Below are positions 4,983 through 64,000 of a stretch of DNA of 64,000 nucleotides, piece by piece. The stretch comes from an uncultured Hormoscilla sp. (GTDB lineage: Bacteria > Cyanobacteriota > Cyanobacteriia > Cyanobacteriales > Desertifilaceae). The translations under genes were made by a program, and so were the position numbers. The stretch covers positions 2,112,001 through 2,176,000 of the forward strand of contig OZ001293.3 in the NCBI GenBank assembly GCA_963921275.4, given 5' to 3'. Each line of letters opens with the position of its first letter. Position 1 is the first letter of the stretch. The notes under the pieces are model-generated. The model had not been told where the DNA came from and did not search any database. It saw only the letters and a list, made by a program, of their open reading frames with translations.

Positions 4983-5163
4983 ACGCGATTCGCCCCGACC
5001 GGGCACATAGGATGTAATCATGAGGGTTTGAGGTTCCGCAGCACCGAGAACCGGTGTTACTCCCGTACTTGGGGAGGGGGAATCCAACCCCATGAATGCC
5101 AGTGTTCCTAATTTCTTAGGCTAGCTTTCCGCGTTTGACTAAGTTATGGAAAACGAATCGCAT
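4983..5163 (-). mobile_element. Group II intron 5'-end fragment (domain I start), bounded by a 10-bp inverted repeat
   Basis: Minus strand ATGCGATTCGTT...CATGGGGTTGGATTCCCCCTCCCCAAGTACGGGAGTAACACCGGT is homologous to the 5' ends of the introns at 22479 and 63625. Confidence 0.8.
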
Positions 5164-9611: not shown

Positions 9612-9919
9612 GCCTTTACCTGTTCAACTGGGGTGCTAGGATTCGAACCTAGGAATGGCGGGACCAAATCCCGCTGCCTTACCGCGCCAGCCTTTACCTG
9701 TTCAACTGGGGTGCTAGGATTCGAACCTAGGTATGGCGGGACCAAATCCCGTTGCCTTACCGCGCCAGCCTTTACCTGTTCAACTGGGGTGCTAGGATTC
9801 GAACCTAGGTATGGCGGGACCAAATCCCGTTGCCTTACCGCGCCAGCCTTTACCTGTTCAACTGGGGTGCTAGGATTCGAACCTAGGTATGGCGGGACCA
9901 AAACCCGCTGCCTTACCGC
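9612..9919 (-). repeat. 78-bp tandem array of tRNA-Gln 3' portions
   Basis: Units start at 9612, 9690, 9768 and 9846; each is about 58 nt of tRNA plus a 20-nt linker. Confidence 0.95.
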
Positions 9920-9933
9920 TTGGCTACACCCCA
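9862..9933 (-). tRNA. trnQ: tRNA-Gln(TTG)
   Basis: TGGGGTG/CACCCCA acceptor stem, GCGGG-TTTTGGT-CCCGC anticodon arm, GGTTCGAATCC T-loop; 72 nt, CCA not encoded. Confidence 0.96.
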
Positions 9934-22239: not shown

Positions 22240-24713
22240 ATGTCTACGGAACTGGAAACGGAATTACAAACAGAAGTCGATCGCAGGCGCAATTTTGCGA
22301 TAATTTCTCACCCGGACGCGGGGAAGACCACCCTGACAGAAAAGCTGCTACTTTATGGAGGTGCGATCCACGAGGCGGGGGCGGTGAAGGCGAGGGCCCA
22401 ACAGCGCCGCGCTACTTCTGACTGGATGGCGATGGAACAACAACGGGGTATTTCGATCACTTCGACGGTGTTGCAGTTGTGCGATTCGTTCTAGTCTAAC
22501 GTAGTCAAATACGGAACACTAGGCCAGGTCCAAACTGGTAACTCTGGTATTCATGGGGGTTAAATTCCCTCTCCCCAGGTACGGGGGTAACACCGGTCCT
22601 TAGTGCTATAGAGTCACATCGCTGTGGTGCGAAGCAAGGACTTAAATGTAGGATAGCTGGCAGCCTAAGCCAGTGACGCCGCTAGGAAAGATGCTCAAGG
22701 TTAGAGCAGGCAAACCTGTGTAAACTTCGTTACACCGAACCAGCGGAATAAGGCTTATACGCTGGCCCAAAAGGGAAATGGTAGTTAGTGCTGGTAGTAT
22801 CTGCTTGCCAGCATCGTGCTCAAAGAACTCCCGGAGGAAAGCAGGAACCTAAAAGCATCGCGAAATGATACCAGGGAACGAAGTAACCTCTCGTGTGCTG
22901 TCCTCATTTGGACTAGTTAGATGTAAAGCGTAAGCCACGGGGGGAGAGATAGCCCGAGAAGCTAATGCCTAGGGTAATGCCTATGGATACGTTGAGGAAT
23001 AGGTAAGGATGCCTCAACATGCAGACGCGGGTTGGTGAAAGTAGGAAATCTTGGGCAAAAGTATCTCTAACAAGCCCCAATACCTCGCGTAGCTGAGGTG
23101 GGATGACTGGTAAAACAGACTTGAAAATGGTAATACTAAAGGTTATCTGGCAGCGCCACTTACCAACCAGGAAAGGGGAGAAATCACACGAGATGAGGGA
23201 CAACGGGAGTAATCCCCAGTAATCCTAGCAATGACAAGGCCCTACTTCCCAGTAGCCGGATGCGGTGAAAGTCGCATGTCCGGTTCCGAATGGGAGGGTT
23301 GGGGGGTGACCCCCAGTTCGACCCCTAATTGCTTATCTTAACTGTCAGATTAATCTCCTGGATACTCCCGGTCACCAGGATTTTAGTGAAGATACTTATC
23401 GAACTCTGGCGGCGGCGGATAATGCGGTGATGCTGGAGGATGCTGCTAAGGGTTTGGAACCTCAGACTCGCAAGCTGTTTGAAGTTTGCCGCATGCGCAA
23501 AATCCAGATTTTTACTTTCTTTAATAAGCTCGATCGCCCTACCCGCGAACCCCTGGAACTCCTGGATGAAATCGAGCAGGAACTGGGTCTGCAAACTTAC
23601 CCGACTAATTGGCCGATCGGGACGGGCGATCGCTTTAAGGGGGTGTTCGATCGCCGTCGGAGGCAAATCCACTTATTTGAGCGCAACCCCCACGGTAGGC
23701 GGGAAGCTAAAGATACGGTAGTGGATTTGGGGGATCCCCGCGTGGAGGATTTGTTAGAGCAAGACCTCTATTACCAACTGAAAGAGGATTTAGAACTCTT
23801 GGAAGGGTTGGGGGCAGAATTTGACTTGGAGGCCATCCATGCAGGTCAAATGACTCCCGTTTTCTGGGGTAGCGCTATGACTAATTTCGGGGTCCGGCTT
23901 TTCCTGGATGCTTTCCTGGAATATGCTCTCAAACCCGGCGATCGCAAGAGTAGCGCGGGGATGATGCCACCCAGTTATCCTGAGTTTACGGGTTTTGTGT
24001 TTAAGCTGCAAGCGAATATGGACCCGAAACATCGCGATCGGGTAGCGTTTGTGCGGGTTTGTACGGGCAAGTTTGAGAAGGACATGACGGTCAATCATGC
24101 CCGCACTGGCAAGACGGTGCGTCTCTCCCGACCGCAGAAATTGTTTGCCCAGGACCGGGAATCTGTAGAGGTAGCTTATCCCGGGGATGTGATCGGTTTG
24201 AATAATCCGGGGGTGTTTGCCATTGGGGACAGTATCTACACCGGGAAGAGGATAGAGTACGAAGGGATTCCCTGTTTTTCTCCGGAACTGTTTGCTTACT
24301 TGAAAAATCCCAATCCTTCTAAGTTCAAGCGATTTCACAAAGGGATTTCCGAATTGCGAGAGGAAGGGGCCGTACAAATTATGTATTCGGCGGATGAATC
24401 TAAGCGCGACCCCATTCTGGCGGCGGTGGGACAATTGCAATTTGAAGTGGTGCAGTTCCGGATGCGGAGCGAGTATGGGGTGGAAACTTTGCTGGATATG
24501 TTACCCTATTCTGTTGCTCGTTGGGTTGTTGGTGGTTGGGATGCTTTAGAAAAGGTCGGGCGTTTGTTTAATACCGTTACGGTAAAAGATAACTGGGAAC
24601 GTCCGGTATTGTTGTTTAAGAATCAGTGGAATTTGGACCAGATCCAATCAGAATATAAGGATTTGCTTCTGAATGCGATCGCCCCTGTGGTGTCGGGTCA
24701 GGAACCTACATAG
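22240..24713 (+). CDS. prfC: Peptide chain release factor 3, two exons (22240-22478 + 23330-24713), 540 aa after splicing
   Basis: [57 protein letters not shown]; the F codon is split TT|T. Confidence 0.95.
22479..23329 (+). mobile_element. ORF-less group II intron (851 nt), sense orientation in prfC
   Basis: 5' GTGCGATTCG; domain V AGCCGGATGCGGTGAAAGTCGCATGTCCGGTTC at ~23254-23286; DVI hairpin ending CGACCCCTAAT; EBS2 ACACCG complements exon CGGTGT. Confidence 0.95.
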
Positions 24714-62300: not shown

Positions 62301-62518
62301 GCATAAAAAAGTAATTTTATGTATCAGAGACGAAAAAAACCTAAATATCCGTAAAGTCTAAGTAAGTAGGTAATTTATATTTGTTAAGATTTGTTAAATA
62401 GGTCGCAACTTGAGTTATGATAGACTTCGGTGCGACTCGTTCCGGCGTAAGTCAGAAATATGACGATAGTCGGGCTAGTATTACACCAGCACCTCAAAAT
62501 CAATTCAGCAACCAAAAA

Positions 62519-64000
62519 ATGAAGCATAAATCTTTTACCAACACCATCGTAGTAGTGGATGCCTCCCTAGAAAACTACCAGCAGCTTATAGACGGCATCC
62601 GGCCTGGGGCCAAATCTTTCCTCTTAGATCTTCGGTCCGATGGCATCAAACAGATCGGCGAACTTCTCCGACAGCATAAAGAAACAGAGGTTCTGCACCT
62701 ACTTTCCCACGGCAGCCCTGGCTGTCTGTATCTGGGAAACTCCCAACTGAGTTTGGATGGGGTCGAGCCGGGAATCGCTTCCCGACCCTCCCTTGAGGAA
62801 CCGGACTTGCGATTTTCACCGCATCCGGCTACTGGGTACTAGGCCCTTTTCATAGGTAGACTTAATAGGAATTACTTCCGTTAGCCCTTGCCGCCTGTCT
62901 TTTCTTCCCTTTCCTGGTTTAGCGAGTGGTTGTTCTGATAACCGTTAGTATCACCATTTTCAAGTCAGTTTTACCAGTTATCCATACCTTATCCTCCACT
63001 TGCGTTTCGGATTAGTTCCGTGGCTTTTTAGGATTACTCATTCCAGCAGCTTCCTAGTATCACCGACCCACGTCAGCGCTGGCTACCCAGCATCATCTAC
63101 ATTACTGTAGATGTTATCCCAGGAATTACCCCGGGCATTCGCTTCTTGGGCCATCCCTCCCCCCGTGGCTTGCGCTTAACATCTAACTTGTCCTGATGGA
63201 CAGCACACGAGAGGTTACTTCGTTCCCTAACAACATTTCGCGATACCTTTAGGTCCACACTATACCCCGGGAGCTATTTGAGTACTATATTAGCCAGAGT
63301 CTAAAACTAATACTAGCTACCATTTCCTTTTTAGGCCAGCGCATATAGCCTTATTTCGCTGGTTCCTTATAACGAGGCTTGCACATGTTTGCCTGCTCTA
63401 ACCTTGGATATCTTTCCTAGCGGCGTCACCGGCTTAGGCTGCCAGTTATCCTACATTTGAGTCCTCGCTTAGCACCACGATGATGTCGCTTCGTAGCACC
63501 GAGGACCGGTGTCACCCCCGTACCTGGGGGGAGGGGAATTTAACCCCCATGCGGTCAGAGTTCCCGGCTAATGAAACCGGGCTAGCGTTCCGTGTTTGAC
63601 CACGTTAGGCTAGAACGAATCGCACAGATCCTCTAGGAGATTACGCCTCTACCCTGCAGAAGTGGAAGGTAAAACAACTCCTACTCTACGGCTGTAACGT
63701 CGCCGCCGGAGATGCAGGAGAGGAGTTGATGACTAAGCTACAGGCCCTGACCGGGGCATCCCTCGCCGCCTCTACTACCCGGACAGGGGCAGCAGCCCGG
63801 GGCGGAAATTGGAAGTTGGAGTGGCGAACTCCGGGGATGAAAACTCCCTTAGCATTGTCCGCAGAAGCTCAGATGGCCTATGGGGGCATATTGATCTCCC
63901 AGCAGGAGTATCAGGCCTTAAGGGCTCTCTATCAAAGCACCAATGGGGCTTCTTGGATTAACAATACAGGCTGGCGGGACTGGAATTTCAACAGCCTAAC
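62519..64000 (+). pseudogene. DUF4347-domain surface protein with probable LRR N-cap, interrupted by an antisense group II intron; runs off the window
   Basis: IVVVDASL..DGIKQI..LHLLSHGSPGCLYLG..QLSL|DPL..LLYGCNVAAG..GGNWKLE..ALRALYQSTNGASWINNTGW. Confidence 0.85.
62755..63625 (-). mobile_element. ORF-less group II intron (871 nt), antisense to its host gene
   Basis: Minus-strand 5' GTGCGATTCGTTCTAG; domain V AGCCGGATGCGGTGAAAATCGCAAGTCCGGTTC; collinear with the prfC intron; removal restores AGT TT|A GAT CCT. Confidence 0.93.

Follow-up and report, generated by a model that had tools for sequence, protein, structure and literature searches.

The locus studied here raises the question of how an intron without a protein-coding gene of its own could come to lie antisense within another gene. 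It belongs to an uncultured Hormoscilla sp. (NCBI GenBank assembly GCA_963921275.4, contig OZ001293.3), of which a stretch of 64,000 nucleotides (nt) was analyzed (positions 2,112,001 to 2,176,000 of the forward strand; here called the window, and positions without a contig name refer to it). At 62755-63625 on the minus strand, the window carries a complete group IIB intron of 871 nt without an open reading frame (ORF) of its own, and this intron interrupts a DUF4347 gene for an adhesin-like protein on the plus strand. A first-pass annotation, made from the letters alone, had described it as the second member of a mobile, ORF-less family, next to an intron in prfC (22479-23329, plus strand, 851 nt). 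We consider it very likely that the element is a non-autonomous group IIB intron retroelement that is mobilised in trans and was inserted antisense in the DUF4347 gene; within that reading, mobilisation in trans, mobility at the RNA level and the identity of the driving reverse transcriptase (RT) are what we infer from sequence comparison.

Anatomy and exact ends of the intron

The intron is a member of a group of closely related copies, family B, and its sequence is the commonest one of that family. Its 5′ end on the minus strand, on which all intron features and their pairing partners are given below, reads GUGCGAUUCG from 63625 downwards. The letters at 63621-63625, GUGCG, fit the 5′ splice-site consensus GUGYG on direct reading, and the exact 13-mer from the 5′ end occurs 338 times across the genome. 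All frames within the 871 nt have at most 57 amino acids, except the host frame that enters from the 5′ side, and hence the intron contains no RT ORF. An alignment of 62725-63655 (minus strand) with the prfC intron extends from one end to the other, and BLASTN gives 76% identity over 873 nt; the two introns are thus collinear over their whole length yet diverged, and equally ORF-less, as the first-pass annotation had it.

The Rfam model RF00029, which describes domains V and VI (DV and DVI), reached 44.4 bits at 62757-62833, above its gathering score of 40, and all model positions (1-77) were matched; the prfC intron gave 44.5 bits at 23251-23329 (plus strand). The alignment places DV, including the AGC triad, at 62799-62830, a span that was also matched by a separate domain-5 model, and DVI at 62760-62792, in agreement with RNAalifold. 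The global RNAalifold fold mispredicts DV, and it was relied on for DVI and the EBS1 hairpin (see below) alone. A bulged branch-point A is predicted at 62763, 8 nt before the 3′ end; the spacing of this candidate A is the same in 21 of 21 cluster representatives. With RF01999, the model of domains D1-D4, the intron gave a weak match (22 bits, E = 0.05) that stays below the gathering score of 36.

Group II introns have AY as their 3′-terminal consensus. The window intron instead terminates at 62755 in ...GGCUCGACCCCAUCC, that is, in the non-canonical AUCC (62755-62758), and all of the 137 family-B copies that could be delineated terminate in ...CCCCAUCC. The RF00029 alignment stops 2 nt short of this end, and the AY of the model is placed too early. 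The 30 nt upstream and the 34 nt downstream of the intron recur, joined, at eight other places in the genome. The empty paralogous junctions read GAGGATCT or GAGTATCT, followed directly by AAACTC; read more fully, they are ...CCTAGAGGATCT joined to AAACTCAG... at two places and ...CCTAGAGTATCT joined to AAACTCAG... at six. Because the last base of the flank is T and that of the intron is C, and because the first base of the intron is G and that downstream is A, the insertion measures exactly 871 nt and its boundaries are unambiguous. Compared with the eight empty sites, the insertion shows no target-site duplication. The end in ATCC rather than AY, as originally proposed, is therefore borne out by eight empty sites and 137 of 137 copies, and it agrees with the covariation described next.

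Reprogrammed target recognition

The two loops assigned as exon-binding sites (EBS) were found as annotated, with AGACTC and ATAAGG in the places where the aligned loops of the prfC intron read AUCUGC and ACACCG. EBS1, AGACUC (63297-63302; intron positions 324-329), is a hairpin loop in the RNAalifold prediction from 21 cluster representatives, and its stem shows compensatory changes between the window intron and the prfC intron. EBS2, AUAAGG (63365-63370; intron positions 256-261), is a loop that varies among clusters. Both assignments are backed by the target logo and by cognate pairing. In the flank of the window copy, the intron-binding site (IBS) 1, GGAUCU (63626-63631), pairs with EBS1 at five of six positions (four Watson-Crick pairs and one G-U, with one A-C mismatch), exactly as had been noted. 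IBS2, UCCUAG (63633-63638), pairs with EBS2 at four of six, and IBS3, the first 3′-exon nucleotide at 62754, is A, as is the +1 position in 95 of 137 family-B copies.

Along the lines suggested by the first-pass annotation, pairing was tabulated for 242 of the 246 full-length ORF-less copies found in the genome, in 22 clusters; four copies were dropped for want of a recognisable 5′ anchor or 6-nt loop. The mean pairing of EBS1 with IBS1 was 5.46 of six positions at cognate sites versus 2.78 (standard deviation 1.10) at non-cognate sites, and that of EBS2 with IBS2 was 4.37 versus 2.57. The target logo of 137 family-B copies, G (117), A/G (76/44), G (103), T (114), C (106), T (116) at positions −6 to −1, is the complement of EBS1, and CCTTA at −13 to −9 is the complement of EBS2. 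The same correspondence is seen with other loops: a sister family of 73 copies combines EBS1 UGCACU with the logo AGTG(C/T)A immediately before the insertion point, and a 92%-identical relative in a congener has EBS1 UCUAGA and EBS2 AAGUAA, both fitting its own flank.

Two further contacts are indicated by covariation columns. The column at intron position 364 in domain I, which in the window intron is U (63262) and a candidate EBS3 for pairing with the first 3′-exon nucleotide, can form a Watson-Crick pair with +1 in 19 of 21 clusters, whereas no other column does so in more than 12; it behaves as expected of EBS3/IBS3 in a IIB intron. The column at position 470 in J2/3, G in the window intron (63156) and the candidate gamma partner of the last intron nucleotide C871, has G in all three clusters with a terminal C and in no others, and A in 16 of the 18 clusters with a terminal U. 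This is the behavior expected of gamma-gamma′, and the terminal C is thereby matched by a compensating G. Since EBS1/IBS1, EBS2/IBS2, EBS3/IBS3 and gamma-gamma′ all covary across subfamilies, the targeting loops have really been reprogrammed, and the diversified target specificity that had been proposed is reflected in the difference between cognate and non-cognate pairing.

How does the window site compare with the other targets of its family? Among 139 family-B copies, IBS1 pairs at six of six positions in 42, at five in 81, at four in 11 and at three or fewer in 5, and four of six is the mode for IBS2 (60 of 139 copies). With modal values for both IBS1 (5/6) and IBS2 (4/6), the window site is typical of family B and not aberrant. 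The poor pairing of EBS2 remarked on earlier is real (4/6 with TCCTAG) and usual in this family.

The prfC intron sits in sense orientation, and joining its exons restores the reading frame of its host, a protein whose nearest named relative is from Roseofilum (84% amino-acid identity). At this site, IBS2 CGGTGT pairs with EBS2 ACACCG at six of six positions and IBS1 GCAGTT with EBS1 AUCUGC at five of six. Its cluster has two copies only, the second at C1:1188828-1189678 (C1 and C3 denote contigs of the assembly). At 5040-5162 (minus strand), the window has a fragment of 128 nt that shares 76.6% identity with the initial ~130 nt of the prfC intron and probably represents the 5′ end of a truncated intron; the RF00029 scan of the window gave no DV/DVI match near it.

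A very recent burst of copies

A BLASTN search of the 7.03-Mb assembly with both window introns, as the first-pass annotation had advised, gave 1,253 high-scoring segment pairs (HSPs), every one of them on the chromosome, of which they cover 4.64%. Merging yielded 246 full-length ORF-less copies in 23 clusters at ~94% identity: family B with 140 copies, its sister family with 73, the cluster of the prfC intron with 2, and the others with 1 to 4 each. At 141 loci, far more than chance would yield, the genome is at least 98% identical to the window intron over at least 780 nt (BLASTN). Profile searches with nhmmer for the ends of this RNA lineage found 407 DV-DVI regions and 395 5′ ends. The description of the window intron as a second family member is therefore right as to membership, but the family is far larger, with ~140 copies, and the window copy is identical to its master sequence.

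Both ends were delineated in 137 family-B copies; 61 of these have exactly the sequence of the window copy, 27 deviate from it by 1 nt and 20 by 2 nt, and the 61 identical copies together with the 27 one-base variants indicate very recent copying. Among 41 related genomes including the source genome, matches beyond DV-sized pieces were confined to four congeners, one of which has full-length copies at 91 to 92% identity; its 92%-identical relative also ends in CC (AGCC). These data have to be set against the view that the window intron is an inactive fossil, a degenerate remnant with a defective CC end that neither splices nor moves. Such a remnant might well have a non-canonical 3′ end, an RF00029 score just 4.4 bits over the threshold and a D1-D4 match as weak as the one observed (22 bits, with a cut-off of 36). 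However, a fossil would not account for the very recent copying documented by the identical and one-base variant copies, the gamma position in J2/3 carries a G that compensates for the terminal C, and the relative from a sister species ends in CC as well. We consider a fossil extremely improbable.

Some copies lie within or next to one another. Five of the 140 family-B copies are inserted between CCTATTAAGTCT and ACC, a site that matches family B's own sequence just 5′ of DV; they would be intron-in-intron insertions. Three copies stand directly behind the 3′ end of another family-B copy and are thus tandems (examples of nested or tandem copies are found at C1:1326652, 5180973 and 6411229 and at C1:826673). 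In addition, a composite of ~4 kb recurs with 99.6 to 99.9% identity in at least six places, including C1:1056900-1061000. It consists of an intron of the 73-copy family and, after it, an RT ORF of 484 amino acids without HNH, which a family-B intron in the opposite orientation truncates at the 3′ end; in one copy of the composite that lacks the family-B insert, the frame has 600 amino acids. The copies are divided between the strands 51:22 in the 73-copy family and 76 versus 64 in family B. Cumulative GC skew is weak, and therefore the strand bias does not lend itself to a reading.

Insertion into the DUF4347 gene and its paralogs

The host gene opens with an ATG at 62519. Its 5′ fragment (62519-62754, plus strand) encodes the first half of the DUF4347 domain, with residues 10-78 corresponding to positions 1-69 of the Pfam profile PF14252 (E = 3.1e-20). 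Beyond the intron, the 3′ part (63626-64000, plus strand) encodes the second half, in a frame that resumes at 63627 and covers profile positions 73-164 (E = 8.6e-24); LRR, He_PIG, many cadherin repeats and an RTX repeat come next, beyond the window's end, with Pfam matches to Cadherin, LRR and HemolysinCabind. The profile is thus split by the intron at positions 69/73. As it stands, the host frame (ORF 62417-62842) runs into the intron and stops at 62842. Without the 871 nt, the host frame again reads ...S L / D P L... and the DUF4347 halves are rejoined, in agreement with the frame restoration claimed before. Equally sound was the claim of an antisense insertion in a surface-protein gene, as the DUF4347-LRR-cadherin-RTX gene runs along the plus strand, opposite to the intron. 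In this orientation the mRNA of the gene carries the reverse complement of the intron, which is unable to fold as a ribozyme or to splice. With the insert unspliced, the protein would stop 29 codons into it, and the adhesin-like gene would probably lose its function.

The genome has 33 DUF4347 matches, six of them as split pairs, and insertion of family B is the explanation of these six "split" DUF4347 genes in the annotation. At the identical site, the intron is present in six paralogs and absent from eight. IBS1 reads GGATCT in all six occupied paralogs and GTATCT in six of the eight empty ones. The base at −5 is thus G, which forms a G-U pair, at 6/6 occupied sites and U, which gives a U-U mismatch, at 6/8 empty sites (a contrast with a hypergeometric probability of ~0.009 by hand calculation, for paralogs that are not independent). 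The introns in the six occupied paralogs are 99.5 to 100% identical, whereas their 450-nt flanks on each side are 88 to 97% identical, and some occupied paralogs are nearest to empty ones, with flank identities of up to 98.2%. Near-identical introns in more diverged flanks are better explained by recent insertions, each independent of the others, than by duplication of a gene already interrupted. The similarity of the six loci over ~2 kb, at 94 to 95%, would also be expected if they were segmental duplicates of one already interrupted gene, but then the introns should not be so much more alike than their flanks, nor should one occupied copy be 98.2% like an empty one; we give this origin next to no credence.

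A second route to six occupied paralogs would be a single entry into one of them, followed by gene conversion or ectopic recombination to the other five. All six share the same 30 nt to the left and right of the intron, and with 33 DUF4347 matches that are 82 to 98% similar near the site, the gene family is large enough for recombination to be possible. However, the empty paralogs share these 30-nt flanks too, which makes the flanks uninformative, and beyond 30 nt the occupied flanks differ by 3 to 12% compared to 0 to 0.5% for the introns. Occupied and empty paralogs are interleaved by similarity, occupancy follows the −5 base of IBS1, which is unexpected under conversion, and the same intron is also found at more than 100 unrelated sites. 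Spread by conversion is thus unlikely, and we prefer repeated, independent insertion of the intron at this site.

Antisense insertion is not peculiar to this gene. After in silico removal of the intron, 30 of the 137 family-B copies lie sense and 37 antisense in open frames of at least 100 amino acids, 55 lie in none and 15 are ambiguous, according to a stop-to-stop test that is crude and not a gene prediction. With 37 antisense versus 30 sense copies, antisense, gene-breaking insertion is common in this genome. To call the window copy ectopic, as the first-pass annotation did, was therefore an overstatement: 5/6 is the modal IBS1 pairing (81/139), the same site is filled in six paralogs, and antisense copies are frequent. 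Of the empty-site alleles that it suggested looking for, the eight empty paralogs were found, but an independent empty allele of the locus itself was found neither in contigs nor in congeners. Among the contigs of four sequencing runs, two, both from one run, skip exactly from 62754 to 63626; with a likeness of 90%, they may stem from the genome's own empty paralogs and were not accepted as an independent empty allele. A 1.2-kb query made from an empty paralog found no usable orthologous empty site in the four congeners, where the matches are too diverged; two weak ones (70% and 67%) span the site uninterrupted.

A candidate helper protein and the loss of the ORF

An ORF-less intron that moves would need a protein from elsewhere. 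The genome has 75 matches to the maturase domain GIIM, and 17 of these 75 frames are full length, that is, they cover a reference protein of 592 amino acids from the N-terminus past the HNH domain. The reference has the domains RVT_N, RVT_1, GIIM and HNH, and its best solved relative is chain C of PDB 6me0 (E = 3.9e-114), which we take to be the Thermosynechococcus elongatus intron ribonucleoprotein (RNP). Only 2 of the 17 full-length RTs are flanked by a 5′ end and a DV-DVI region of the same RNA lineage as the window intron (C1:1143255-1147413, with the 592-amino-acid RT at C1:1145513-1147291, and C1:6622111-6625993). A third copy of the 592-amino-acid ORF is 99.3% identical and has no detectable intron ends. 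The RT/maturase/HNH protein of these two or three ORF-bearing introns is the likeliest helper. The ORF-less clusters are 71 to 83% identical to the 5′ part (domains DI-DIV) of the ORF-bearing intron, family B being 78% identical in DI-DIII only, and since the ORF-bearing introns are at most ~83% identical to the ORF-less clusters, the driver RT is a candidate only. The search for a helper that the first-pass annotation had in mind has thus succeeded as far as intact RTs of the same lineage are concerned, and left the driver a candidate.

How the ORF was probably lost is indicated by at least eight clusters, including that of the prfC intron, in which the alignment jumps from the same pre-ORF position to the base just after the stop codon. 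The sequences point to one ancestral ORF deletion followed by diversification, as in Thermosynechococcus. The opposite case, in which each copy would have lost its ORF independently after insertion, had been named at the outset, and the breakpoints shared by at least eight clusters speak against it; in family B the junction itself is unalignable.

A second DV-like stretch was seen at C1:1147195-1147260, inside the 3′ end of the 592-amino-acid RT ORF, where RF00029 also matches (C1:1147221-1147297). It is 77 to 89% identical to DV of the ORF-less introns and lies ~80 to 110 nt upstream of the real DV, depending on the cluster aligned.

A model for mobilisation in trans

In our model, the intron RNA would fold into a ribozyme that is bound and spliced by an RT/maturase/HNH endonuclease encoded elsewhere in the genome. 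The excised RNA would then reverse-splice into DNA at sites set by three pairings, EBS2 AUAAGG with IBS2 CCUUAU, EBS1 AGACUC with IBS1 GAGUCU, and EBS3 U with IBS3 A, and the inserted RNA would be copied into DNA by target-primed reverse transcription. To produce the window copy, the RNP would have hit a tolerably matching site, UCCUAG-A-GGAUCU before the insertion point and A behind it, on the antisense strand of the DUF4347 adhesin-like gene; the same site may have been struck independently in five other paralogs.

Several points weigh against this model. The window intron ends in CC and thereby departs from the AY consensus, and the pairing of EBS2 with IBS2 is weak throughout the family (mode 4/6). 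Identity between the ORF-bearing introns and the ORF-less clusters reaches ~83% at most. Positions 690-751 of family B do not align, and its deletion junction is too diverged to read. At the insertion site, the six occupied and the eight empty paralogs are related to one another, and the G/U contrast between them is not a test on independent samples. Last, the host gene has a second frame break ~2.7 kb downstream (C1 about 2178290), beyond the window's end, where two cadherin-repeat ORFs of 854 and 1,378 amino acids lie in different frames. This break is due to a frameshift, to another lesion or to misassembly of the repeats, and the host gene may already have been a pseudogene or may have decayed later.

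Other features of the window and assembly

An ordinary tRNA gene lies at 9862-9933 on the minus strand of the window (RF00005, 63.9 bits). Contig C3 of the assembly (31,420 bases) has a G+C content of 17.6% compared to 42 to 49% in the other six contigs, and it may be a foreign or contaminant replicon.

Implications and comparison with known systems

Bacteria usually tolerate only a handful of group II introns, the elements from which spliceosomal introns and non-LTR (long terminal repeat) retroelements presumably descend. We tentatively suggest, in the knowledge that this may well prove wrong, that the genome studied here bears the heaviest bacterial group II intron load yet, with an organization like that of long and short interspersed nuclear elements (LINEs and SINEs): two to three autonomous introns with one RT of 592 amino acids, ~390 protein-less relatives, and ~4.6% of the chromosome occupied, with two masters (~140 and 73 copies) that burst very recently under relaxed targeting into genes in both orientations. 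If this is true, the "intron invasion" that has been postulated for early eukaryotes would have a living model in a bacterium, and the CC end with its compensating gamma change would show that the ribozyme core is still evolving while mobile. The genome also offers a natural data set on the drift of target specificity and on the mismatch tolerance of reverse splicing (GGATCT was hit, GTATCT was not), on how small a number of RT genes suffices to drive hundreds of dependent elements, and on the cost of gene-disrupting insertions to a filamentous cyanobacterium that is probably polyploid. Full-text literature searches, with subscription-only papers outside their scope, found no report of such an intron load or of that of the genus.

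In Thermosynechococcus elongatus, the case of intron proliferation that has been studied best, mobilisation of ORF-less TeI3 group IIB introns by driver TeI4 RTs was shown experimentally (Mohr, Ghanem & Lambowitz 2010, PMC2882425). According to the sections of that report drawn on here, both systems have ORF-less introns derived from a IIB intron with an ORF, families with different EBS1, EBS2 and EBS3, RTs of related introns as mobilisers, and twintrons, the last two being putative in the present genome (PMC2882425). The ORF-less introns of T. elongatus have a single deletion in common (PMC2882425); here, common breakpoints were seen in at least eight clusters. They differ in scale, with 17 ORF-less introns out of 28 in T. 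elongatus in the same sections (PMC2882425) versus 246 full-length ORF-less copies and ~400 ends here. They differ in location as well: the introns of T. elongatus are described there as lying mostly at well-paired sites, with few within genes (PMC2882425), whereas the modal copy here mispairs at one IBS1 position, and ORFs of at least 100 amino acids contain 67 of the 137 copies, in either orientation. Unlike in T. elongatus, the 3′ end is CC, and no ORF-bearing intron is more than ~83% identical to an ORF-less cluster.

Expansions of group II introns have also been described for Arthrospira platensis and other filamentous cyanobacteria (Miura et al. 2022, PMC8919778). The portion of that survey used here covers 1,790 representative genomes, gives a maximum of 101 introns per genome and mentions that some genomes are enriched in ORF-less introns (PMC8919778). 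Many group II introns in a filamentous cyanobacterium and RTs with an HNH domain are common to those expansions, as far as described there, and to the genome studied here (PMC8919778). The 407 DV-DVI matches of one lineage found here stand against the survey maximum of 101, with counting methods that differ (PMC8919778). In sum, on a scale that appears to be unreported, the mechanism by which family B reached the DUF4347 gene appears to match the Thermosynechococcus precedent.

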